A DNA stretch of 64,000 nucleotides from an uncultured Chloroflexia bacterium (GTDB lineage Bacteria > Chloroflexota > Limnocylindria > QHBO01): contig CAVXEH010000002.1 of NCBI GenBank assembly GCA_963760875.1, forward strand, positions 336,258-400,257, read 5' to 3'. Positions 1,786 to 46,936 of the stretch are shown one piece after another. Below the pieces are notes generated by a model, which searched no databases, was not told where the DNA came from, and saw nothing but the letters and a program-made list of their open reading frames with translations. Numbering within the stretch: position 1 is the stretch's first letter; each line of letters begins with the position of its first letter. Position numbers and translations under genes: made by a program.

Positions 1786-3510
1786 TCAGTGGGCGGCGAT
1801 GCTCACCCACGCGTAGTAGTTGTCCCCGGTGTTCTGGTTGTCCTGGGCGGTCGGCCGAAGGTTGGTGACCCACGGCTTGACCACGGTGAACCGCTGTCCG
1901 AAGCGGACGGGGATGATCGGGGCATCTGCCATGATCATCTCCTGCGCCTGGTTGTAGAGCGGGATCTGCTCATCGAGCGAGGCCTTCTGGGCCGCCTGGG
2001 CGAGCAGGTTGTCCAGGTCCTTGTTGCAGTAGCCCATGTAGTTGTTCGCCGAGGTACAGCTGAACAGGTCCGTCAGGAAGTTGTTCGGGTGCGGGTAGTC
2101 CGCGCCCCATCCCAGGCGGAAGATGCTGAACGGGTCACTGCCGAGGCGATCCAGGTAGGAGCCCCACTCGAGGCCGACAGCCTCGACCGAGATGCCGAAC
2201 GCATCGCGCCAGGCCTCGACCATGTAGTCGATCTTGTTCTCCCAGTTGGCGCCGGTGTTGTACCCGATCTGCAGCTTGAGGTCCGCGGGCTTCATGTTCA
2301 GCTCAGCCAGCGCCGCGTCGAAGTCGGCCTTGGCCTTTGCCTTGTCGAACGGATAGAAGACCGTGTCCTGGTGGCCGGGCATCCCCGGGGGCACCATGCT
2401 GTCGGCCACGACGCCGATGCCCGCGAAGGCGGTCGCCATCATGGTCTTCTTGTCGATGGCCTCGTTGAAGGCCTGCCGCAGCTTCACGCTCTTGGTGAAC
2501 GGGCTCTTGGCCTGCTTCACGTCGAAGCCGAAGTACGTGATCGACAGGGTCGCGCCCGAGACGACCTGCTGGCTGAGGGTCGGGTCGCTCTGGACCCGCG
2601 AGACCTCCTGGGACGGCACCAGGGCGGTGTCCTCCTCGTTGGCCTCGTACGCCGCGAGCACGGCGGTGGGATCGGTGATCATGGTGTAGTCGATCTCGGC
2701 GATGGTCGGTGCGCCGACGCCGAGCGCGTCACCGATGGCGGGGTTCCAGTTGGGGTTGGGCTTGAGGACGATCTTGGAGTTGTGGGTCCACTCCGTCATG
2801 GTCATGGGTCCTGAGCCGACCCAGTTGGCCGCCTCGGTGAAGTCCTTGGTCTCGACCCACTTCTTCTCGAGCGGCACGGTGCCGTAGAGGGTCGCGATGT
2901 ACACGAAATAGGCCGCCGGGTGGGCCAGCGTGACCACGAAGGTCTTGTCGTCGGGGGCCGCCACGCCGAACTTATCCAGCATGGCGTTGATGTCGGCGTC
3001 GCTCGTCGTCTTGGTGTCGACCGACAGCAGCTCGGAGCCGCCCTTGACGTCAGCCATGATGTAGCTGTAGCCCGCGGCATTGCGCGGGTCGATCAGGCGC
3101 TTCCAGCTGAAGACGAAATCACCGGCGACGATGGGATCGCCGTTGGAGTACTTGATGTTGTCGCGCAGGTGGAACGTGATCTGCGTCCCGTCAGGGCTGA
3201 TGTCCCAGCTCTTTGCCAGCCACGGGATGACGTTGAGCTGCTGGTCGTAGAAGACGAGCGTCGCTGTCGTCTGCCGCAGGACCGCGATCGACGCGCTGTC
3301 GGTCGCCTGGGTCGGATCCTGGCTGGGGGGCTCGGTGCCGAGGTCGGCGTGCATGACCTGGTCCGCCGCAAGCGGCGGAGTGGCCGACGGGCCGGTCGAT
3401 CCGCTTGCGCCTGGGCTCGTCGAGCTCCCCTGGCCGCCGCACGCGGCGAGCAGGAGCGCCAGGCTCAGCGCCATTCCCATGAGTCGTCTCACGGTTGCTC
3501 CTTCCTGCAT
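1786..3510 (-). CDS. ABC transporter substrate-binding lipoprotein, family 5 (peptide/nickel, DppA/OppA-like)
   Basis: A lipoprotein signal (LSLALLLAACGG) follows a probable start MQEGATV... (AAGGGA SD), or a GTG 18 nt downstream with a GGAAGGAG SD. Length and composition are typical of SBP family 5. The long N-terminal extension in the track is unlikely. Confidence 0.8.
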   Translation of the reverse strand: MQEGATVRRLMGMALSLALLLAACGGQGSSTSPGASGSTGPSATPPLAADQVMHADLGTEPPSQDPTQATDSASIAVLRQTTATLVFYDQQLNVIPWLAKSWDISPDGTQITFHLRDNIKYSNGDPIVAGDFVFSWKRLIDPRNAAGYSYIMADVKGGSELLSVDTKTTSDADINAMLDKFGVAAPDDKTFVVTLAHPAAYFVYIATLYGTVPLEKKWVETKDFTEAANWVGSGPMTMTEWTHNSKIVLKPNPNWNPAIGDALGVGAPTIAEIDYTMITDPTAVLAAYEANEEDTALVPSQEVSRVQSDPTLSQQVVSGATLSITYFGFDVKQAKSPFTKSVKLRQAFNEAIDKKTMMATAFAGIGVVADSMVPPGMPGHQDTVFYPFDKAKAKADFDAALAELNMKPADLKLQIGYNTGANWENKIDYMVEAWRDAFGISVEAVGLEWGSYLDRLGSDPFSIFRLGWGADYPHPNNFLTDLFSCTSANNYMGYCNKDLDNLLAQAAQKASLDEQIPLYNQAQEMIMADAPIIPVRFGQRFTVVKPWVTNLRPTAQDNQNTGDNYYAWVSIAAH

Positions 3511-3598
3511 TCCCTTGCGTTCGATGTGGGCTCGTGCCCGGGTGCACCCCGTTTGCCCATACCTACCCATGGGTCTCGCGCAAGGTTCACTCTCATAA

Positions 3599-3630
3599 CC
3601 ACATGGCGATATTTCTCGCCACATGGTGCG
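3599..3630. promoter_or_regulatory. Operator-like repeat overlapping the start codon of the ArsR-family regulator
   Basis: ACCACATGGCGATATTTCTCGCCACATGGTG: direct repeat CCACATGG x2 flanking an inverted core GGCGA/TCGCC. ArsR/SmtB regulators typically autoregulate through such dyads. Confidence 0.4.
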
Positions 3631-4759
3631 CACGAGAACCGCGAATCGGCTATCGTTGCGGCTCGTGGAGCTCGTCACCAACCCCGCCGCGCCGCCCGGC
3701 ACGCCGCGCATCCTCCCCGTACGGGTCGAGTCCGGCCCGGCCTTCGAGCTGCTGGCGACGCTGTGGGCATTCCTGCATCGGTCCCACCACCCCTACTACG
3801 ACGTTGGGCGCTCGTGGTTCGACCGCATCGCCGCCGATGCCCCCGAGACGGCCGCGCAGGCCCGGGCCTTCGCCGGCGCGTCACTCATGGTCTGGGACCA
3901 CGTCCTGGGCCTGGCGCTCGATGGCGGTCCGCCGTACGAGGTCGACCGCCTCCTCGCGCAGCTGGCGGCCACCGAACCCGAGGCGCTGCGCCTCGCACTC
4001 CTCGGCCGCTGGAACCGGCCGGTCCAGCGCGCCGTCGGCGCCGAACGAATCGACGAGGCGGCGGCGGGAAACGCGACGGCACAGCGCGACTTCATGCGCC
4101 TGGCCTGGCCCGACGAGGCACCCTGGCAGGCAGGGCTGCGGCAGCTGTTCCGGCACGATCCCGCGGAGACGCGCGACGAGCTGGTCGCGGTCCTGCGCGC
4201 CTGGAACCGCGACGTGTTCGCGAACTACATCGGCCCGGTGCAGCCGGCGCTGGATGCGGACGCGGAGGCCAAGCGGGCGAGCGCCGTGACCCTTCCCGCG
4301 CCGGAGCTCATTCGCTCGGCGCTGGACACCGGCTATACGCCCACCGGGGACGTCGCGGGCGTGGTGCTCGTCCCGTCCTTCGTGATCCGGCCGTTCGTGT
4401 ACTTCATCGAGCACGCCGACCAGATGCTCTTCCTGTATCCCGTCGCCGATCGCACCGCGGAGGCCGTGGACCCGGGGCCGCCCGAGCGGCTCGTCAAGCT
4501 GGCCCAGGCGCTCGGGGATCGCGGCCGGCTCGAGATCCTGGGCGTGCTGCGGGAGCGGGACATGGCCGTGAGGGAGATCGCCACCGAACTTGGGCTGGCC
4601 CGTTCCACCCTGCGCCACCACCTGGGGATCCTGCAGGGCGCCGGGCTGATCCGGCCGGTCCAGTCCGGCACCGGGTTCAGCCGCTTCCAGCTGCGCGAGG
4701 AGGCCGCGACGGACCTGGCGGAGCTGCTGGATCGGTTCCTGCGAAGATCCTCCGCATGA
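3623..4759 (+). CDS. ArsR/SmtB-family transcriptional regulator with a large N-terminal domain of unknown function
   Basis: The C-terminal winged HTH RLEILGVLRERDMAVREIATELGLARSTLRHHLGILQGAGLI is classic ArsR. The ~280-aa N-terminal domain has no recognisable catalytic motif. Confidence 0.7.
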   Translation: MVRTRTANRLSLRLVELVTNPAAPPGTPRILPVRVESGPAFELLATLWAFLHRSHHPYYDVGRSWFDRIAADAPETAAQARAFAGASLMVWDHVLGLALDGGPPYEVDRLLAQLAATEPEALRLALLGRWNRPVQRAVGAERIDEAAAGNATAQRDFMRLAWPDEAPWQAGLRQLFRHDPAETRDELVAVLRAWNRDVFANYIGPVQPALDADAEAKRASAVTLPAPELIRSALDTGYTPTGDVAGVVLVPSFVIRPFVYFIEHADQMLFLYPVADRTAEAVDPGPPERLVKLAQALGDRGRLEILGVLRERDMAVREIATELGLARSTLRHHLGILQGAGLIRPVQSGTGFSRFQLREEAATDLAELLDRFLRRSSA

Positions 4760-5094
4760 CCGAGAGCCCTGCGGCGCCCGACGCGCCACGCATCAGCAAC
4801 AATCCCGAGGAACGACGCTACGAGGCCTGGCTCGACGATCGGCTTGCCGGCAAGGCCGAGTACCGCATGGTGGGCGATCGCGTCATCTTCTTCCACACCG
4901 AGATCGATCCCGCCTTCGAGGGCAGGGGCGTGGGGTCGCGCCTGGCCCGGGGCGCGCTCGACGACGTTCGCGCCCGTGGCCTGCGCGTCACGCCCAAGTG
5001 CCCGTTCATCGCGGCCTGGATTGCGCGACATCCCGACTACGCGGACCTCGTCGCCGAGCGCCCGCGCGGCGGGCCGGACGGCGAGAGGAGCTGA
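4756..5094 (+). CDS. Small GNAT-like N-acetyltransferase (Acetyltransf_CG/YjdC-like, ~112 aa)
   Basis: ATG 4756 overlaps the stop of the ArsR gene (ATGA). Sequence MTESPAAP...RYEAWLDDRLAGKAEYRMVGDRVIFFHTEIDPAFEGRGVGSRLARGALDDVRARGLRVTPKCPFIAAWIARHPDY matches the minimal GNAT fold. Confidence 0.55.
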   Translation: MTESPAAPDAPRISNNPEERRYEAWLDDRLAGKAEYRMVGDRVIFFHTEIDPAFEGRGVGSRLARGALDDVRARGLRVTPKCPFIAAWIARHPDYADLVAERPRGGPDGERS

Positions 5095-5108
5095 GCCGGA
5101 GCCTGCGA

Positions 5109-5143
5109 TTGCATGAACCTGCGTCGGTGTGCATAATCATGCG
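5109..5143. promoter_or_regulatory. Candidate ARG boxes (ArgR operator) at the arg operon leader
   Basis: TTGCATGAACCTGCG followed by TGCATAATCATGCG (near-palindrome TGCAT-n4-ATGCg), immediately upstream of and overlapping the first start codon of argH. Confidence 0.35.
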
Positions 5144-5146
5144 CCC

Positions 5147-6577
5147 ATGGCACCCGACCGCGATCCACCCGGAGCCCCGGATCCGCCTCGCTGGGCGGGA
5201 GTCGCCACCGCTCCGCTGAGCGATGCGCTGCTGCTTCTGGCCGGCACGGCCGAGGAGGATGCCCCGCTGGCCGCGCACGACGTCGCGGCGTCGCTCGTCC
5301 ACGTCGGTGAGCTGGAGCGCCTGGGCCTGCTGACGGCCCGGGATGCCGCGCAGGCCCGCGCCGCCCTGGTGGACATCGGCGCAGAGCTCGACGCCGGCAC
5401 GTTCGCCTGGCGCGATGCGCACGAGGACATCCACATGAACGTGGAGGCAACGCTCGCCGGGCGCGTGGGGGAGGCCATCGCGGGGCAGCTCCAGGCGGGG
5501 CGGAGCCGCAACGAGGAGGTGGTCACCGACGAGCGTCGCTGGCTGCTGGCCACCGTCGCGACCCTGGACGCGTCGCTTGCCGCTCTCCAGGAGGCGCTGC
5601 TCGACCAGGCCGACCTCGCCTTCGCGGCGCGGGCCGTCCTCCCCGCCCTGACGCATGGCCAGCCGGCCCAGCCGGTCCTCCTCGCCCACCAGCTGCTGGC
5701 CTGGGTCGAGATGCTGCAGCGCGATCGGGGCCGGCTTGCCGATGCCGCCGCGCGCGCCGACGCGTCGCCTGCAGGCTCGGGGGCCGTGGCCGGCTCGGGT
5801 CTCCAGCTCGATCGCACGGCGATCGCAACGGCGCTGGGCTTCTCGCGGGTCACCGCCAACTCCATCGACGCGGTCGCGGACCGCGACTACGCGGCGGAGC
5901 TGGTGGCGGCGTGCGCCATCGGTGCCGGGCACCTCTCGCGCCTTGCCGGCGAGCTCGCCGGGTGGTCGGCACCCTCTGTCGGTTGGGTGCGGCTGGGCGA
6001 CGGGTACGTCTCGGGCAGCTCCATGCTCCCGAACAAGCGCAACCCGGACAGCTGCGAGCTGGTGCGGGCGCGCGCGGCCCGCATCGCCGGCGACCTGGCC
6101 GTGATCCTGTCCGTCCCGCGCGGCCTGCCCCTCGCCTATCACCGCGACCTGCAGGAGACGCGCGCCGCCATGATCGGCAGCACCCATTCGTTCGGGCTCT
6201 GCCTGCAGGTCATGGACGGCGTGGTGCGCAGCGCCACCTTCGACCACGCGGCGATGCGCGCCGCGGCGGAGGGTGGAGGCCTGGTGGCCACCGCCCTCGC
6301 GGAGCGCCTGGTAGCCGCCGGCGTGCCCTTCCGGGAGGCGCACCACCGGGTGGGGGCCCTGGTCGCTCGCGCCGCCGAGTCCACCTCGACCCTTGCCGAG
6401 CTCCCCGCCGCGATCCTGGCCAAGGCGCTCCCGGAGCTGGCCGGCCGGCCGGACCCGGTGCCGACCCTGGATGAGGCGCTTGCCGCACCGGACCTGCCCG
6501 GCGGGACGGCGCCGGCGCGGGTCGGCGCAGCGCTGGCCGTCGCCCGGGCGCGGCTCGCCACCGGAGAGCCATCATGA
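5147..6577 (+). CDS. argH: Argininosuccinate lyase
   Basis: Fumarate-lyase signature GSSMLPNKRNPD. ArgH-type motif RSRNEEVVTDERRW (S-R-N-D/E). The track ORF starts at GTG 5129; ATG 5147 (MAPDRD) is the more likely start. ATGA overlap with argC. Confidence 0.8.
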   Translation: MAPDRDPPGAPDPPRWAGVATAPLSDALLLLAGTAEEDAPLAAHDVAASLVHVGELERLGLLTARDAAQARAALVDIGAELDAGTFAWRDAHEDIHMNVEATLAGRVGEAIAGQLQAGRSRNEEVVTDERRWLLATVATLDASLAALQEALLDQADLAFAARAVLPALTHGQPAQPVLLAHQLLAWVEMLQRDRGRLADAAARADASPAGSGAVAGSGLQLDRTAIATALGFSRVTANSIDAVADRDYAAELVAACAIGAGHLSRLAGELAGWSAPSVGWVRLGDGYVSGSSMLPNKRNPDSCELVRARAARIAGDLAVILSVPRGLPLAYHRDLQETRAAMIGSTHSFGLCLQVMDGVVRSATFDHAAMRAAAEGGGLVATALAERLVAAGVPFREAHHRVGALVARAAESTSTLAELPAAILAKALPELAGRPDPVPTLDEALAAPDLPGGTAPARVGAALAVARARLATGEPS

Positions 6578-7611
6578 CGACGGCGCGGACCGGGGTGCGG
6601 GCCGCGGTGGTGGGCGCCTCGGGGTACGCGGGCGCGGAGCTCATCCGCCTGCTCGCCGGCCACCCGCAGGTGACCCTCGTCTCCGTCCACGCGCGCGAGC
6701 GCGGCGGCGTGCCATTGGCCGAGGAGCACGCCCATCTCGCGCCGCTGGGGCTCACCCTCGCCGACGGGCTCCCGGATCCGGGGAGCGTGGACGTCGCGTT
6801 CCTGGCCCTGCCCTCGGGCGCGTCGACGGACGCGGCTGCGGCGCTGGTGGGCGCGGACACCACGGTCATCGACATCGGCGCCGACTTCCGGCTCCGCGAC
6901 GAGGCCACCCATCGCGCCTGGTACGGCGACGCGCCACGCCCGGCGGACCTGGCCACGGCAGCGGTCTACGGCCTGACAGAGCACGCCCGTGACCGGCTCC
7001 CGGGGGCCCGCCTGGTCGCCAACCCCGGCTGCTACCCCACCGCCGCGCTCCTGGCGGTCGCCCCCTTCGCGGCGGCCGGGCTGCTGGCGGACGAGGTGGT
7101 TATCGACGCCAAGTCTGGGGTCAGCGGTGCGGGACGCACGGCGTCGCGCGCGTTCGGGTTCAGCGAGCTCGACGCCTCCGTCAGCGCCTACGGGCTGGCC
7201 GGGCATCGGCATCGACCGGAGATCGAGCAGGGCCTGGCCGATGCAGGAGCCGACGGAATCGGCGTTACCTTCGTGCCGCACCTCGTCCCCATGGCCCGTG
7301 GCCTTCTCGCCACCTGCTACCTGCACCTCGGCGAGGACCTCTCCGACGACGCGCTGCAGGCCCTGCTGTGCGATGCCTACCCGGCCGAGCCGTTCGTCCA
7401 CGTCACCGATACCCCGCCGGCCACGAAGATGGCGGCCGGTTCAAACCACGCCTTCCTGTCCGTGACCCGCACCGGCCCGGCTCGCTGCGTGGTGACGAGC
7501 GCCATCGACAACCTGGGCAAGGGGGCCGCGGGACAGGCGATCCAGAACATGAACGTCGTCTTCGGCCTGCCGGAGACCGCCGGGCTCGGTGCCCTGGGCG
7601 TGGTGCCGTGA
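6574..7611 (+). CDS. argC: N-acetyl-gamma-glutamyl-phosphate reductase
   Basis: NAD-binding N-terminus VVGASGYAGAELIRLL. Active-site Cys motif ANPGCYPTAALLA. Confidence 0.9.
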   Translation: MTTARTGVRAAVVGASGYAGAELIRLLAGHPQVTLVSVHARERGGVPLAEEHAHLAPLGLTLADGLPDPGSVDVAFLALPSGASTDAAAALVGADTTVIDIGADFRLRDEATHRAWYGDAPRPADLATAAVYGLTEHARDRLPGARLVANPGCYPTAALLAVAPFAAAGLLADEVVIDAKSGVSGAGRTASRAFGFSELDASVSAYGLAGHRHRPEIEQGLADAGADGIGVTFVPHLVPMARGLLATCYLHLGEDLSDDALQALLCDAYPAEPFVHVTDTPPATKMAAGSNHAFLSVTRTGPARCVVTSAIDNLGKGAAGQAIQNMNVVFGLPETAGLGALGVVP

Positions 7612-8828
7612 CCACCGGCGTGACGATGGTCGCCGGCGGCATCCTGGCGCCGCGCGGCTTCCGCGCGGGATCGGCCTCCGCCGGCCTGCGCGAGCGCAGT
7701 GCCGGCGATGACGTGGCGCTGGTGGTCGCGGACCAGCCGGCGGCCGCCGTGGGGTTCCTCACCGCGAACCGCTTCGCGGCGGCGCCCGTGCAGATCGCCC
7801 GCTCCTCCCTGGCCGCCACGGGTGGACACGCCCGAGCGGTGGTGCTCAACGCCGGCTGCGCCAACGCGGGAACCGGACCCGCGGGACTGGAGGCCGCTGG
7901 CCGCGTGGTCGAGGCGGTGGCCGAGCGCCTCGGCTGCGATCCCGCGGAGGTGCTCCCGGCCTCCACCGGGCTCATCGGCTCGGCGCTGCCGGCGGATCGG
8001 GTGGCGCGGGCGGCCGCGCAGCTGCGCCTGGGTACGGCGGGAGACGCCGCCACGGCCGCGGCGCGCTCGATCATGACCACGGACACCCGGCCCAAGGAGT
8101 CCGCGGCCCGGGCCGCCGTGCGCGGGCAGCCGATCACGGTGGGCGGGATGGCCAAGGGTGCCGGGATGATCCATCCGGCCATGGCGACCATGCTGGCGGT
8201 GGTCACCACCGATGCCCGGGTGGAGCCCTCGACGCTGCGCGCCCTGGCCGCGCCCATCGTCGAGCGGACGTTCAACCAGGTGAGCGTGGACGGTGACACC
8301 TCGACGAACGACACGCTGTACCTGCTCGCGTCGGGTTCGGCCGGTGGTGAGGCCATCACCGGCGAGGGCGAGGCGGCTGCCGCCTTCGCGGCGGCGCTCG
8401 AGGCGGTCTGCACCGACCTCGCCCGCCAGATCGCCGCGGATGGCGAGGGGGCGACCCGCCGCATCGACGTGACGGTCTCCGGAGCCGCGAGCGACGCCGA
8501 GGCCCGGGACGCGGCACGCACCGTGGCGGGATCGAACCTGGTGAAGGCCGCGGTCCACGGCGCCGACCCGAACTGGGGACGCATCGCCGCCGCGGCCGGT
8601 CGCAGCGGCGCCACCCTCGACCCGGAGCGCCTGCGGATCTGGATCGGGGAGGTCCTCACCTTCGCCGGCACGCCCTGTGCCTTCGATCCGCCCGCGGCGA
8701 GCGACGCCATGCGCGGCGAGGTGGTGTCCATCCGCCTCGACCTGGGCGCCGGCAACGGCATCGGCCTGGCCTGGGGCTGCGACCTGTCCGCCGACTACGT
8801 GGCGATCAACAGCGAGTACGCGACATGA
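7608..8828 (+). CDS. argJ: Bifunctional ornithine acetyltransferase / N-acetylglutamate synthase
   Basis: Autoproteolytic site PAMATMLAVVTTDA (ATML, Thr nucleophile) and overall ArgJ length. GTG 7608 overlaps the argC stop; ATG 7626 is the alternative start. Confidence 0.85.
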   Translation: MTTGVTMVAGGILAPRGFRAGSASAGLRERSAGDDVALVVADQPAAAVGFLTANRFAAAPVQIARSSLAATGGHARAVVLNAGCANAGTGPAGLEAAGRVVEAVAERLGCDPAEVLPASTGLIGSALPADRVARAAAQLRLGTAGDAATAAARSIMTTDTRPKESAARAAVRGQPITVGGMAKGAGMIHPAMATMLAVVTTDARVEPSTLRALAAPIVERTFNQVSVDGDTSTNDTLYLLASGSAGGEAITGEGEAAAAFAAALEAVCTDLARQIAADGEGATRRIDVTVSGAASDAEARDAARTVAGSNLVKAAVHGADPNWGRIAAAAGRSGATLDPERLRIWIGEVLTFAGTPCAFDPPAASDAMRGEVVSIRLDLGAGNGIGLAWGCDLSADYVAINSEYAT

Positions 8829-9664
8829 ACGAATCCCCTCGGCAGGCGGTCACCCTCAAGCTGGGCGGCACCAGCGCGCAGCACGCCGGCTGCGTGGAGC
8901 TCGTGGGTCGCCTGGCGGAGCCGGGCTGGGTCGTGGTCCACGGCGGCGGCGGCGAGCTCGATGCCTGGTCGGAGCGAATCGGACTGGTGCCCAGGCGGGT
9001 CGAAGGCCTGCGCGTGACGGATCCCGAGACCCTGGACCTGGCCTGCGCCGTCCTGGGCGGCCTGGTGAACGCCCGCCTGGTCGCTCGCCTGCGGGCCATG
9101 GGTGTTCCGGCGCTGGGCCTCACCGGCCTCGACGGCGGGCTGCTCACCGCCACACCCCTGGATCCGCAGCTGGGCGCGGTGGGCGAGGTCACCGAGGTCG
9201 ACGCGGTCCTCCTGGACGCGCTGGCGGTCGCGGGGCAGGTCCCGGTCGTGGCGTCCATCGCCGCCACGCGGGGCGGCGAGGTGCTCAACGTGAACGCGGA
9301 CACCGCAGCGGGGGCCGTGGCCGCAGCGCGTGGCGGCCTCCTGATCCTGTGCACCGACGTCGCCGGCGTGCTCCATCACGGCAGCCTGGTCGAGCAGATC
9401 GACACCGCGGATGCCCTGCGTCTTCTCGCCGATGGCGCCGCCTCCGGAGGCATGCGCCCGAAGCTGCGCGCCGCCCTCCACGCGGCCACCGCCGGCTGCG
9501 AGGTGCGGATCGTGGACGGCCGCGACCCCGACGCGGTCCTCGCCGCACTGCGGGGAGAGCGCGCCGGCACCCTCGTCACCGCGGGCCCGGCCAGGCCCAC
9601 GCCCATCCAGCCCGGCGCGCCGGGCATCCAGCCGCCCGCGGGGGGCCCCGGAGGGAGCACATGA
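8825..9664 (+). CDS. argB: Acetylglutamate kinase
   Basis: Amino-acid kinase motifs VVHGGGG and NVNADTAAGAVA. ATGA overlap with argJ. Confidence 0.85.
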   Translation: MNESPRQAVTLKLGGTSAQHAGCVELVGRLAEPGWVVVHGGGGELDAWSERIGLVPRRVEGLRVTDPETLDLACAVLGGLVNARLVARLRAMGVPALGLTGLDGGLLTATPLDPQLGAVGEVTEVDAVLLDALAVAGQVPVVASIAATRGGEVLNVNADTAAGAVAAARGGLLILCTDVAGVLHHGSLVEQIDTADALRLLADGAASGGMRPKLRAALHAATAGCEVRIVDGRDPDAVLAALRGERAGTLVTAGPARPTPIQPGAPGIQPPAGGPGGST

Positions 9665-10167
9665 CCAGTCCGGCTCGACGCCAGGAGCTCATCCGCCAGC
9701 TGCTCGCCGCTGGCCCGGTTCGCTCGCAGCGCGCCCTGCAGATCGCCCTGGGCGAGCGGGGCGTGGACGTCAACCAGGCGACCATCTCCCGCGACCTCGC
9801 CGCATTGGGCGTGGTGCGCGGGAGCAGAGGCGGGGGTCCCGCCTACCTCCTGCCCGACGACGTGGCCGAGGCGCCGGCGGCCGCGGCGGCCGCCCGCCTG
9901 CATCGCCTGCTTGCCGACCTGCCGCTCCAGATCGACAGCGCGCCACCCTTCCTGGTCCTGCGCACGACCCCGGGCGCCGCCAACGCCATCGCCTCGTCGC
10001 TGGACCTGGCTCGCCACGCCGACGTGGTCGGCACCGTGGCCGGCGATGACACGATCTTCGTCGCCTGCCGCGGGCGGACGGGCCTGGGCCGCGTCCGCGA
10101 CTACCTCACCGCCCTCAGCGCGCACGGCGCGCCGCCACCCACCACCCTTCCTGCGAGGAACCCATGA
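9661..10167 (+). CDS. argR: Arginine repressor
   Basis: N-terminal winged helix (QRALQIALGERGVDVNQATISRDL) and C-terminal arginine-binding motif GTVAGDDTIF. ATG 9661 overlaps the argB stop. Confidence 0.8.
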   Translation: MTSPARRQELIRQLLAAGPVRSQRALQIALGERGVDVNQATISRDLAALGVVRGSRGGGPAYLLPDDVAEAPAAAAAARLHRLLADLPLQIDSAPPFLVLRTTPGAANAIASSLDLARHADVVGTVAGDDTIFVACRGRTGLGRVRDYLTALSAHGAPPPTTLPARNP

Positions 10168-11465
10168 CCGAACGCGTCGTGCTTGCCTATTCCGGCGGGC
10201 TGGACACCTCCGTCGCCGTCCCCTGGCTCCGCGAATCCCACGGCTACGACGTCGTGGCCCTCACCGCCGATGTCGGCGGGGGCGCGGACCTTCCCACCAT
10301 CAGCGCCCGGGCCCTGTCCGCCGGCGCCTCGGTGGCCATCGGCGTCGACGCCCGTGCCGCCTTCGTCGAGTCCTACGTGTGGCCGGCGCTCCAGGCGGGT
10401 GCGGTCTACCAGGGCGTCTACCCGCTCGCCACCGCGCTGGCCCGTCCGCTGATCGCGCGGCTCCTGGTCGAGGCGGCGCACGAGACCGGCGCGACGCTGG
10501 TGGCCCACGGCTGCACGGGCAAGGGCAACGACCAGGTCCGCTTCGACGTCGCCATCGGCGCGCTCGATCCGGGGCTGACGGTGATCGCCCCCATGCGCAA
10601 GGGGATGGGCATGAACCGCGACGAGGAGCTGGCCTACGCGAAGGCCCGCGCCATTCCGCTCGAGGCGGGGACCGGCGCCGGCTCGCCCTACAGCATCGAC
10701 GTCAACCTGTGGGGCCGCTCCATCGAGGCCGGGGTGCTGGAGGATCCCTGGGCGGCCGCACCGCCGGACGCCTACGCATGGACGGTGGATCCCGTGGATG
10801 CGCCGCGCAACGGAGTGGAGGTCGCCATCGGCCTCGAGCACGGCGTCCCGATCACCCTCGACGGCCAGGCCCTTGACGGGGTGACGCTCATCGAGCGGCT
10901 CAACGAAGTGGGCGGCGCGAACGGGGTGGGACGCATCGACCACGTCGAGGACCGGCTGGTAGGAATCAAGAGCCGCGAGATCTACGAGGCACCGGCCGCG
11001 GTCATCCTGCACGCGGCGCACGCCGCCCTGGAGCAGATGGTCCTCTCGCGCGACCTGATCGCCTTCAAGCGCGAGGTCGGCAACCGCCTCGCAACCCTCA
11101 CCTATGACGGCGTCTGGTTCGGCGAGCTGGCGCACGCCCTGCGTGGCTTCGTGGCCAGCACCCAGGATCACGTCAACGGCACGGTCCGACTGCGGCTGGT
11201 GGCCGGGAGCGCCGCGGTGGTGGGCCGCAGCTCCCCCGACTCGCTGTATCGCCACGACCTGGCGACGTACGGCGCGGAGGATGCCTTCGACCAGGCCGCC
11301 GCGGTGGGCTTCATCGCGCTGTGGGGCCTCCCCGTCCGCACGCAGTCGGCGATCCACGGCTCCGCCATCCACAACGGATCGCTGCTCGACCAGCTGGGAG
11401 CGATTCGGCGGACGGCCACCGGCGCACCGGTGACGTCGGTCGAGCCGGTGGGCCGGGGCCGATGA
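10164..11465 (+). CDS. argG: Argininosuccinate synthase
   Basis: PP-loop AYSGGLDTS at the N-terminus; length and conserved blocks of ArgG. Confidence 0.9.
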   Translation: MTERVVLAYSGGLDTSVAVPWLRESHGYDVVALTADVGGGADLPTISARALSAGASVAIGVDARAAFVESYVWPALQAGAVYQGVYPLATALARPLIARLLVEAAHETGATLVAHGCTGKGNDQVRFDVAIGALDPGLTVIAPMRKGMGMNRDEELAYAKARAIPLEAGTGAGSPYSIDVNLWGRSIEAGVLEDPWAAAPPDAYAWTVDPVDAPRNGVEVAIGLEHGVPITLDGQALDGVTLIERLNEVGGANGVGRIDHVEDRLVGIKSREIYEAPAAVILHAAHAALEQMVLSRDLIAFKREVGNRLATLTYDGVWFGELAHALRGFVASTQDHVNGTVRLRLVAGSAAVVGRSSPDSLYRHDLATYGAEDAFDQAAAVGFIALWGLPVRTQSAIHGSAIHNGSLLDQLGAIRRTATGAPVTSVEPVGRGR

Positions 11466-13183
11466 ACGCGCAGCCGCAGGGCCTCCGCAACGGCGGCACC
11501 ATCGCCTCGTTCTCCGGCGGGGCCTCGTACGCGCGGCACGCCCGCCCGGAGGACATAGCGGCCATCTGGCGGATCATCGACGGGTACGCGCAGCAGGGCG
11601 TCCTCCTGCCTCGCTCGCACGAGGAGATCGCCGACAAGATCGGCTCATTCCACGTGGTCGTCCAGGACGCCGACGTGGTGGGTGTCGCGGCGCTCCGCGA
11701 CTTCGGCGCGGGCATCGGCGAGCTGCGCTCCCTGTCGGTCACGCCGGAGATGCACGGCTACGGCTTTGGCGAGCTGCTCATCCGCGCCGCAGTGGCCCAT
11801 GCCCGCCAGAGCGGCATCGGCGAGCTGTACGTGATCACCGCCTCGCCCGGCTACTTCGCCCGCTTCGGCTGGACGCAGCTGCCCATGGACGACGTCCCCG
11901 GGGTCCTGGACGCGGACCGCGCCCCGGACCGGCCCCGCCACCTGTGGAACACGGCCATGGTCCTGCGCCTCGCCGACGTCCCCCGCCGGATCGACGCCCC
12001 CGAGCTCGAGGCGCGCGTCCACCTGCAGGTGTACGCCCGCCAGCCGCTGACCCTGGTCTCCGGCGACGGCTGCTGGCTCACCGACGACGCGGGCAACCGC
12101 TACCTCGACATGGTCGCGGGCATCGCGGTTGCCGTCCTGGGACACGCCAGCCCCATCGTGGCCGATGCGGTCTCGCGACAGGCCCGCCGCCTGGTCCAGG
12201 TCTCGAACCTGTACTACACCATCCCCCAGCTGGAGCTCGCCGATGCCCTCGTGCGCCGCTCCGCGTTCGACCGTGCCTTCTTCGTGAACTCCGGGGCGGA
12301 GGCCAACGAGACGGCGCTCAAGCTCGCCCGGCGCCGCGGTCACGCGCGGGGCGCAAGCGAGATCGTGGCCGCCGAGGGGTCCTTCCACGGCCGGACCATG
12401 GGCGCCCTCGCGGCAACCGGGCAGCCCAGGTACCGAGAGCCGTTCGAGCCGCTCCCCGGCGGGTTCCGCCACGTGCCGTTCAACGACCCCGACGCCCTTC
12501 GGGCCGCGGTGACGGAGCGGACGGCGGCCGTGCTGCTGGAGCCGATTCAGGGCGAGAGCGGCGTGCGTCCGGCGAGCGATGCCTACCTGGTGGCGGCGCG
12601 CGAGGCATGCGACGCGTCCGGAGCCCTGCTGATCCTCGACGAGGTGCAGACCGGGATGGGCCGCACCGGATCGTTCTTCGCCTTCGAACAGACGCCGGTG
12701 GTCCCCGACGTGGTGACCCTGGCCAAGGGCCTGGGCGGAGGCGTGCCCATCGGGGCGGTGCTGGCCACCGAGGCGGCCGCGGCGTTCGAGCGCGGCGACC
12801 ACGGCACCACGCTGGGCGGGAACCCGCTGGCCTGCGCCGCGGCGCTCGCCACGCTGGGCGCCCTGGACTCGGATCACCTGCTGGACAACGCGCGGGAGCG
12901 GGGCGAGGAGCTGGCCATTGGCCTGGCGGGGTTCGTGGACGCGGGGCTCGCCACGGAGGTGCGCGGCCGCGGGCTGATGCTCGCCCTGGAGACCGCGGGA
13001 CCATGGGCGAAGGCGGCCATGGCCTTCGCCCGGGACCGCCACGGCCTGCTCGTCAACGCCACCGGGGAGAGCACCCTGCGCTTCGTGCCGCCGCTGACCA
13101 TTGACCGCGCGGAGATCCGCCAGGCGCTGGAGCGCCTGGAGCCCGCCCTGCGCGAAGCGGCGGATGCCGCGGCGGCCGCCTGA
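11462..13183 (+). CDS. argD: Fusion protein: N-terminal short-form N-acetylglutamate synthase-like GNAT (~170 aa) + acetylornithine aminotransferase (class III PLP aminotransferase)
   Basis: Single uninterrupted 574-codon frame. The N-terminal GNAT block ([25 protein letters not shown]...[35 protein letters not shown]) matches the S-NAGS pattern. The C-terminal part has PLP-lysine motif [11 protein letters not shown] and ArgD-like blocks. ATGA overlap with argG; TGATG overlap with argF. Confidence 0.75.
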
Positions 13184-14166
13184 TGGCCGTGCCAATCCCC
13201 GCCGTAAACGCCAGGTCGCCGCAGCCGGGGGCTGCACGGACGGCGGCGATGCACTTCCTATCCGGGGCCGATGCCGCGGCCCTGGGCCTGGAGCGCCTGC
13301 TCCTCCGCGCAGAGTGGCTGCACCGCGACCGGCGACTGCACCGGGTGGCGGATCCGCTCATCGGTCGTCACGTGGCGCTCCTCTTCGAGAAGCCCAGCCT
13401 GCGCACGAAGATGAGCTTCGAGGTGGGGGTCGCCGCCCTGGGCGGCCGGGTCACCTACCTGGGGCCGACCGAGGTGGGCATCGGCACGCGGGAATCCGCC
13501 GCCGATGTCGGCCGCAACCTGTCGCGATGGGTCGACGCGGTGGTGGTGCGCACCTTCGCCCACGCCGCGCTGGTCGAGCTCGCCGAGGCGTCCTCGGTCC
13601 CGGTGGTGAACGCACTCACAGACCGCGAGCATCCCTGCCAGGCGCTGGCCGACGTGCTCACCCTGCGCCAGCACCTGGGCTCGCTCCGGGGCCGTCGTCT
13701 CGCGTTCGTGGGCGACGGGAACAACGTCCTCCACTCGCTGCTGCTCATCGGGGCGCTGGCGGGCCTGGAGATCCGGGTGGCGACGCCACCCGGATACGAA
13801 CCGGATGCCGCCATCGTGGAGCAGGCCCGCGCGTATGGGCAGCGAAACGGCGGAACCGTCGCCATCGGCTCCGATCCGGGCGCAGCGGTGGCCGGGGTGG
13901 ACGCGGTATACACCGACGTGTGGACCTCCATGGGAGCCGAGGCCGAGGCCGACGAGCGTCGAGCCCGCTTCGGGCCGTACCAGGTCAACGCCGCGCTGCT
14001 GGCGCATGCACCCGGCGCGCTGGTGATGCACTGCCTCCCGGCGCATCGCGGCGAGGAGATCACCTCCGATGTGCTGGACGGTCCGCACTCGGTCGTGCTG
14101 GACCAGGCGGAGAACCGGCTCTACGTGCAGCAGGCCGTGCTCCTGGAGCTCCTGCCAACCCGGTAG
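13183..14166 (+). CDS. argF: Ornithine carbamoyltransferase
   Basis: Carbamoyl-phosphate motif SLRTK (STRTR-like); HPCQ; DVWTSMG; HCLP. An alternative start is at MHFLSG (13249). Confidence 0.85.
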
Positions 14167-46693: not shown

Positions 46694-46936
46694 TCAACGA
46701 TGCTATCGCCGGTCAGCGGAGGCGGCGCATCGTTTCGGGCGTCTCGCCGAGCGCGAGGCTGGCACTTACGCAGCAGGCTCAGTGATCGTGAGCGCGGACT
46801 ACAGATGTTGTGGGGTTCGCTAGGCACGAAAGGAGTCGAGCCTTCGGTCCCCTGATCCAGAGTCAGGTGCCTTACCGCTTGGCCACGCCCCAACGTTTGA
46901 ACGGGACCCGGGCTTCGCCCGGCCTTCCTTTTGGGA

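Follow-up and report, generated by a model that had tools for sequence, protein, structure and literature searches.

How organisms without a classical ArgA synthesize N-acetylglutamate is a recurring question. Here we examine a 64,000-nucleotide stretch of DNA from an uncultured soil Chloroflexia bacterium (contig CAVXEH010000002.1; hereafter, the window). Within an arginine operon, a single open reading frame (ORF) joins an N-terminal acetyltransferase domain of the GNAT type, resembling N-acetylglutamate synthase (NAGS), to acetylornithine aminotransferase (ArgD). Is this fusion real, and what would the joined enzyme do? We consider it likely that the ORF encodes a genuine, selectively maintained bifunctional protein of arginine biosynthesis in Ca. 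Limnocylindria, consisting of a NAGS-type GNAT with putative NAGS activity and ArgD.

The fused gene and its two domains

The ORF runs through 573 codons in a single reading frame without internal stops (Table 1). Because its homologues also start from this methionine (alignment A1), we take ATG 11462 to be the true start; a longer GTG-initiated ORF from 11321 was considered as the gene and rejected for this reason. In a full-length AlphaFold2 (AF2) model, the protein forms two folded domains with a short coil between them (mean predicted local distance difference test (pLDDT) 81.8, predicted template modelling score 0.67), although contacts between the domains are not reliably informed by this model. 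The coil spans residues ~170–178 and is followed by the first helix of ArgD.

By its sequence, the C-terminal half is a complete and ordinary class-III acetylornithine aminotransferase (step 4 of the pathway) dependent on pyridoxal phosphate, in agreement with an earlier note on this DNA. It scores above the cut-offs of both the acetylornithine transaminase equivalog NF002874 (487.7 bits versus 457, covering profile positions 16–397 of 399) and TIGR00707 (471.9 bits versus 410), and it matches Pfam Aminotran_3 at residues 196–563 (3.2e-107). The lysine that binds pyridoxal phosphate, K422 in TLAKGLGGG, is present and invariant in alignment A1. The motif D393-E-V-Q-T-G398 is likewise present, with D393, E394, Q396 and G398 invariant in the same alignment.

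For the N-terminal half, the earlier note had proposed a single GNAT domain of ~170 residues of the NAGS type, and the sequence and structure matches agree on this. Pfam detected Acetyltransf_1 (3.6e-8) and Acetyltransf_7 (3.3e-7), both within residues 57–138. The top five NCBIfam matches were all NAGS or arg(A)-type models: PRK07757 (N-acetyltransferase; 1.5e-26, 93.2 bits versus a cut-off of 154), PRK05279 (ArgA; 1.4e-21, 76.9 bits versus 344), PRK07922 (Mycobacterium tuberculosis-type short ArgA; 1.5e-19, 70.3 bits versus 180), TIGR01890 (N-acetylglutamate synthase; 2e-19, 69.9 bits versus 202.85) and PRK12308 (ArgH(A) fusion; 2.7e-19), in which the GNAT domain matches the (A) part. The four best sequence matches in PDB were likewise all NAGS, including those of Neisseria gonorrhoeae (ngNAGS; 1e-14), M. 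tuberculosis (Rv2747; 4e-12) and the C-domain of Vibrio NAGS (2e-11), and a search with the family profile returned Rv2747 at 2e-25 and ngNAGS at 3e-23. The AF2 model of the domain has GNAT topology and a mean pLDDT of 82.6, exceeding 90 over residues 20–150. When this model was compared to PDB using Foldseek, the best seven matches were NAGS GNAT domains at 25–30% identity, followed by generic GNATs at 14–20%.

Residues expected of such an enzyme were mapped by HMMER alignment to ngNAGS, with roles taken from a review of NAGS (PMC4490483). There, Arg316 binds the glutamate carboxylate, Glu353 is the general base and Ser392 the general acid; these align with R51 (nearly invariant in the family), E87 (invariant) and T126 (invariant), respectively. 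L49 and S90 are aligned to Leu314 and Cys356, which make main-chain contacts. The beta4-alpha3 motif that binds acetyl-CoA (x-x-x-G-x-G/A) is present as H98-G-Y-G101-F-G103, both glycines of which are invariant.

Ahead of the GNAT core, at residues 8–28, lies a conserved peptide, L-R/K-x-G-G-T-I/M-A-x-L/F-S/T-x-x-A-S-Y/F-x-R-x-A-R, part of which falls in the region predicted to be disordered. It is kept in relatives in which the GNAT stands alone or is fused to ArgD, and it occurs in a variant form at the end of the linker where the GNAT is fused to ArgG (alignments A2 and A3). This peptide may serve in docking or regulation.

To place the domain among other GNATs, it was searched alone against 1.84 billion cluster representatives with exhaustive HMMER. 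Only three sequences fell below 1e-30, forming a tight clade, and beyond this gap came PRK07757-type GNATs at 29–40% identity, including an ArgH-GNAT fusion (P0146). The fused proteins themselves were absent from its results, probably since the representatives of their 50% clusters contain ArgD alone; the search is therefore blind to GNAT-ArgD fusions outside Limnocylindria. Taken by sequence and fold, the domain is likely a divergent, lineage-specific branch of the short-NAGS or arg(A) group.

Occurrence in independent assemblies

A full-length search of 5.8 billion proteins identified at least 16 clusters (90% identity) that contain both domains, at 63–92% identity, as well as a truncated protein (P0023). 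These clusters come from JGI, ENA, NCBI and Logan assemblies. A query spanning the junction (residues 100–260) was uninformative: all that it retrieved from the same protein set were short fragments of ArgD, none of them fused.

We then took a census of loci by searching the GNAT-domain profile against one genome per GTDB species. This yielded 60 loci, of which 57 are from metagenome-assembled genomes (MAGs) whose labels read Ca. Limnocylindria, Chloroflexota or 'uncultured Chloroflexia' in all but a few cases. In 12 of the 57 Limnocylindria loci, GNAT and ArgD share one frame with no stop between them; ten of these are clean (L004–L009, L013, L015, L016 and L019), and two are fused at the junction and frameshifted elsewhere (L053 and L057). 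Several of the fused contigs are named in the style of SPAdes or MEGAHIT, which suggests that they are short-read assemblies. Because the junction is in frame in many clusters and in 12 GTDB species genomes, a frameshift confined to the present assembly does not account for the fusion; the earlier note had named a stop or frameshift between the domains in raw reads as one of two observations that would undo its claim.

Two features of the census concern the quality of individual records. In seven loci from Microflora Danica (MFD) MAGs (L019, L021, L024, L046, L053, L057 and L058), argG or argD is split across at least two frames; these look like indel errors, and conclusions about frame at these loci need other assemblies. 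Six loci carry unrelated taxon labels, namely Steroidobacteraceae (L008, L017, L043 and L052), Ca. Binatia (L011) and Ca. Angelobacter (L047). Their arg operons are of the Limnocylindria type and their GNATs are 50–82% identical, and these are probably wrong labels or mis-binned contigs.

Selection on the fused gene was estimated from the ratio of nonsynonymous to synonymous substitution rates (dN/dS) in the window's clade, relative to five relatives. Ratios were 0.08–0.19 for the GNAT, 0.11–0.15 for ArgD and at most 0.23 for the 16-codon linker. Both halves and the join between them are maintained by purifying selection.

Three architectures of one GNAT

The 57 loci were classified by tblastn with the window's ArgG, GNAT, ArgD and ArgF, combined with checks of frames and stops. 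The GNAT is fused to ArgD in 12 species loci, sits on the C-terminus of ArgG in 24 and is a separate gene in 20, while one heavily frameshifted locus (L058) is unclear. The fusion of the window, whose spread the earlier note had left to be traced, is thus one of three interchangeable architectures in Ca. Limnocylindria and not an isolated oddity.

The stand-alone form is a gene of ~170 codons in the same gene order, with 4-nt overlaps with argG upstream and argD downstream (for example, L001 and L002). The ArgG-GNAT proteins (L010–L012, L014, L017, L018, L021–L027, L029–L033, L035, L041, L042, L044, L047 and L048; for example, L012 at 3226–5070 and L023 at ~4609–6474) have 597–624 residues, including a low-complexity linker of 40–80 residues, and were explicitly translated for eight assemblies whose contig names are of the short-read style. 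The next gene is a separate argD in six of these loci and argF in the other 18, in which argD is no longer in the operon. A seeming triple fusion of ArgG, GNAT and ArgD in L019 was rejected: argG changes frame for its C-terminal half, which runs into a stop, and the semblance is due to a frameshift inside argG of this MFD MAG.

In all 57 loci, the GNAT lies between argG and either argD or argF, in a census that could not reveal genomes without the GNAT gene. This constant operon position, together with fusion only to arginine enzymes, gives strong contextual support for a role in the arginine pathway. It seems that this GNAT has time and again become fused to the arginine enzymes encoded next to it.

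Origin of the fusion

Comparison of fused and unfused loci points to small changes at overlapping codons. In unfused loci, ...WNTAMVLHP* is the end of the GNAT, and the GTG or ATG from which ArgD begins is contained in this stop (...CAC CCG TGA, with GTG ACC... as the first codons of ArgD). Fused clade B has ...CAC CCG GTG CCG... or CCG ATC ACC at this place; the old start codon is translated there as an in-frame V or I, in line with the insertion of a single base. The linker of the window protein matches the N-terminal tail of free ArgD, where conservation is poor; it resumes at REARVHLQxYxRQP. Two adjacent and translationally coupled genes thus came into one frame through an indel of 1–2 nt at a 4-nt GTGA or ATGA overlap, and the variable N-terminal tail of ArgD became the linker. 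This is a clean example of gene fusion through small indels at overlapping stop and start codons.

The number of such events is less certain. In neighbor-joining trees based on GNAT and ArgG, the clade of the window (the window and L004–L009) lies apart from a second fused clade (L013, L015, L016, L019 and L057), while the linker peptide VPRR[I/V]DA is common to both, being found in the window's clade and in L013. The shared linker suggests one origin and the trees point the other way, leaving one or two events. In addition, a GNAT-ArgD fusion was found on the other GNAT subtype, with the C-terminus GHAMELLL (P0016; locus L064, 404–2122). Relative to its closest unfused relative (P0136; L065, 995–1501), it has a 2-nt deletion in which 'AT' is lost from CTATGAGC at the ATGA overlap. 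It would count as a separate origin of the fusion, seen on one 2.8-kb contig.

The arginine operon and its surroundings

The fusion is the eighth cistron of a compact operon, argH-C-J-B-R-G-[GNAT-argD]-F, based on Pfam assignments (Table 1). It is translationally coupled to both neighbours, as the earlier note had stated: the start codon overlaps the stop of argG (ccgATGAac, with ATGA at 11462–11465) and the stop codon overlaps the start of argF (TGATG at 13181–13185). Upstream of the fusion, each of the six junctions is an ATGA or GTGA overlap of 4 nt.

Table 1 Features of the fused gene, its operon and its surroundings in the window
Feature	Position	Strand	Basis or remark
Fused GNAT-ArgD ORF	11462–13183	+	ATG 11462, TGA 13181–13183; 573 aa plus stop; full-length in at least 16 clusters and 12 GTDB species loci
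N-terminal ~20 residues	11462–11521	+	Predicted disordered, pLDDT 36–43; holds part of the conserved peptide, which reaches residue ~28
Conserved N-terminal peptide (aa 8–28)	11483–11545	+	Alignments A2 and A3
NAGS-type GNAT domain (aa ~21–170)	11522–11971	+	Sequence matches and AF2 model; includes R51, E87 and T126
Linker (aa 171–186, 16 residues)	11972–12019	+	Comparison of the junction with unfused relatives; AF2
Complete ArgD domain (aa 187–573)	12020–13180	+	NCBIfam NF002874 and TIGR00707, Pfam Aminotran_3
argH	5129–6577	+	Pfam; separate gene
argC	6574–7611	+	Pfam
argJ	~7608–8828	+	Pfam; start at 7608 placed by the GTGA overlap
argB	8825–9664	+	Pfam
argR	9661–10167	+	Pfam
argG (argininosuccinate synthase)	10164–11465	+	Stop overlaps fusion start (ATGA)
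argF (ornithine carbamoyltransferase)	13183–14166	+	Start overlaps fusion stop (TGATG)
Second GNAT domain	~4816–5094	+	Pfam Acetyltransf_CG, 4.3e-26; end of ORF 2920–5094
Candidate ARG box	~5100–5135		Two TGCAT elements
tRNA-Gln (CTG)	46819–46893	-	Rfam, ARAGORN

Directly upstream of argH lies a second, small GNAT domain, which is unrelated to that of the fusion and is missing from this position in the related locus L002. Also upstream of argH, and overlapping its GTG start, is the sequence GATTGCATGAACCTGCGTCGGTGTGCATA, which might be an ArgR operator (ARG box) of an operon that encodes its own argR. Rfam and tRNA scans identified nothing connected with the arginine locus; the tRNA-Gln gene was the sole RNA gene that they found in the window.

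Proposed function and alternative explanations

Our preferred reading is that of a bifunctional enzyme. The GNAT domain would acetylate glutamate, priming or topping up the acetyl cycle of ArgJ, which is encoded in the same operon, and the ArgD domain would transaminate N-acetylglutamate semialdehyde. Steps 1 and 4 of arginine biosynthesis are not consecutive, and L-glutamate is used in both. Step-specific channelling is improbable, because of this order of steps and because sister lineages have the GNAT on ArgG and gamma-proteobacteria have it on ArgH. A benefit would more likely come from fixed 1:1 co-expression under ArgR and from anchoring a small acetyltransferase with poor kinetics on a stable oligomer.

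Several points weigh against this reading. The GNAT domain falls under the curated cut-off of every NAGS model, the best score being 93 bits against 154. Matches to NAGS profiles end at residue ~146–150 (about position 127 of 153), leaving a divergent C-terminal third, and the arsenic-resistance acetyltransferase ArsN2 is also detectable as a GNAT relative (7.8e-15). Two further glutamate-binding residues of ngNAGS, Arg425 and Ser427, lie beyond all alignments, since single-sequence and profile matches in PDB stop by residue ~154. The equivalent stretch, RHLWNTAM, has no evident R-x-S, and by eye this part reads W-N-T or G-H-A; the arginine is probably not conserved. The advantage of being fused is conjecture, fusions at overlapping stop and start sites could be nearly neutral, and the ArgJ encoded in the operon could be bifunctional in its own right, leaving no need for a separate NAGS. 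The earlier note had called the N-terminal half a short-form NAGS (S-NAGS): NAGS families and structures are indeed the best matches and no other acetyltransferase family does better, but because the domain is below every model cut-off, 'S-NAGS' is a well-supported assignment and not demonstrated membership.

The NAGS scores below cut-off, the relationship to ArsN2 and the lack of an evident R-x-S lend some weight to a real fusion whose GNAT acetylates something else, either another small molecule (such as an ArsN2-like substrate or a different amino acid) or, in a regulatory role, a protein such as ArgD or ArgG. Loose substrate choice has a precedent in the S-NAGS of M. tuberculosis, which is reportedly more active with glutamine than with glutamate (PMC3827942). 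We nonetheless regard another substrate as unlikely, given that the gene sits within an arginine operon in every one of the 57 loci and is fused to arginine enzymes exclusively, that NAGS domains are its best matches in sequence and structure by a clear margin, and that the equivalents of Arg316, Glu353 and Ser392 are kept. Even less probable, in our view, is that the fused GNAT is catalytically unimportant, a neutral or slightly deleterious accident of frameshifting in cells where ArgJ supplies N-acetylglutamate. Indels of 1–2 nt at GTGA or ATGA overlaps produce fusions trivially, such fusions have arisen in both directions in this class, and the operon includes argJ. Against an accident, purifying selection is as strong on the fused GNAT as on ArgD, its putative catalytic residues are invariant across fused clades that are only ~57–60% identical, and the gene was kept in all recovered loci, subject to the bias of the census towards genomes that have it.

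An artefact, in which an indel error of the assembly merged two separate genes, would be in keeping with the obvious frameshifts in neighbouring genes of the seven MFD MAG loci and with the difference of only 1–2 nt at the junction between fused and unfused relatives. Yet the in-frame junction and its conserved linker recur in L008, L013, L015 and L016 and in P0001, P0004, P0006, P0011 and P0013, which include JGI contigs and contigs with SPAdes- or MEGAHIT-style names, and the linker codons diverge synonymously with few amino-acid changes. The artefact explanation is effectively refuted.

Returning to a bifunctional GNAT-ArgD enzyme, we put forward one extension of it that is speculative and, in our view, improbable. 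The short NAGS of this lineage could work poorly alone and need to be held on another arginine enzyme, in which case the alternative partners and the N-terminal peptide would be traces of a physical complex and the identity of the partner would be a minor matter. If true, these proteins would put to a direct test in nature the old idea that S-NAGS enzymes depend on a protein partner in every case.

Comparison with known systems

The searched literature describes several classes of proteins that acetylate glutamate: classical two-domain NAGS, vertebrate-like NAGS/K, S-NAGS, ArgH-fused H-NAGS, ArgO, C-NAGS, bifunctional ArgJ and a NAGS-ArgC fusion (Haliangium). ArgH and, for another type of NAGS, ArgC were the only fusion partners reported there, and neither ArgD nor ArgG was found as a partner of NAGS or GNAT in this literature, which leaves out most subscription journals; the earlier note had likewise not recognized the architecture. 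The sequences of the fused proteins are already public, annotated only as acetylornithine transaminase, so that pathway reconstructions for Limnocylindria will overlook the step with which arginine synthesis begins.

Classical two-domain NAGS (ArgA; N. gonorrhoeae, PDB 2r8v) is the best structural and single-sequence match in PDB (Foldseek 1.2e-14, 30% identity), and the equivalents of its Arg316, Glu353 and Ser392 are present in the window GNAT. In contrast to it, the window GNAT has no amino-acid-kinase domain (kinase-like and arginine-binding), and the Arg425/Ser427 motif is not evident. In this respect it is closer to Rv2747, the S-NAGS of M. tuberculosis (PDB 5yge and 5yo2), which is also a single GNAT of ~170 residues without an amino-acid-kinase domain, is the best match of the family profile with a similar fold (template modelling score ~0.7), and is tied to arginine genes in an organism with ArgJ. 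However, the two are only ~25–28% identical and differ in the C-terminal third, the window GNAT is covalently joined to ArgD, and stand-alone versions of it are found only in sister lineages. For the M. tuberculosis enzyme, the only short NAGS to have been studied well, a glutamate Km of up to 600 mM has been reported, and partner proteins for short NAGS 'cannot be ruled out' (PMC4490483); short NAGS have also been 'speculated' to always require a partner (PMC3827942), and speculation on such a need is found in PMC1382215 as well.

A precedent for the architecture is ArgH(A) or H-NAGS (PMC1382215; PRK12308), known from Moritella, Idiomarina and the Alteromonas-Vibrio group; in these marine gamma-proteobacteria, a short NAGS is joined to ArgH. 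In both cases, an arg(A)-type GNAT is placed on an arginine enzyme that does not catalyse the next step, within a tightly coupled arg operon, and the nearest outside relatives of the window GNAT include the ArgH-GNAT protein P0146. The differences are that the partner here is ArgD, that the GNAT is N-terminal rather than C-terminal, that argH is a separate gene in the window, and that the fusion is another event in another phylum. The present finding extends the ArgH(A) precedent, an S-NAGS fused to an arginine enzyme, and is not a new principle.

A further comparison is with the ArgG-GNAT proteins of sister Limnocylindria (for example, L010–L012, L022 and L023; P0137), which have a GNAT of the same family (50–61% identity) at the same operon position. 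They differ in that the GNAT is on the C-terminus of ArgG, behind the long linker described above, with argD separate or elsewhere. Since a single class thus carries this GNAT alone, on ArgG or on ArgD, these proteins provide matched natural constructs for asking whether the choice of partner matters and whether tethering alters Km, stability or sensitivity to arginine.

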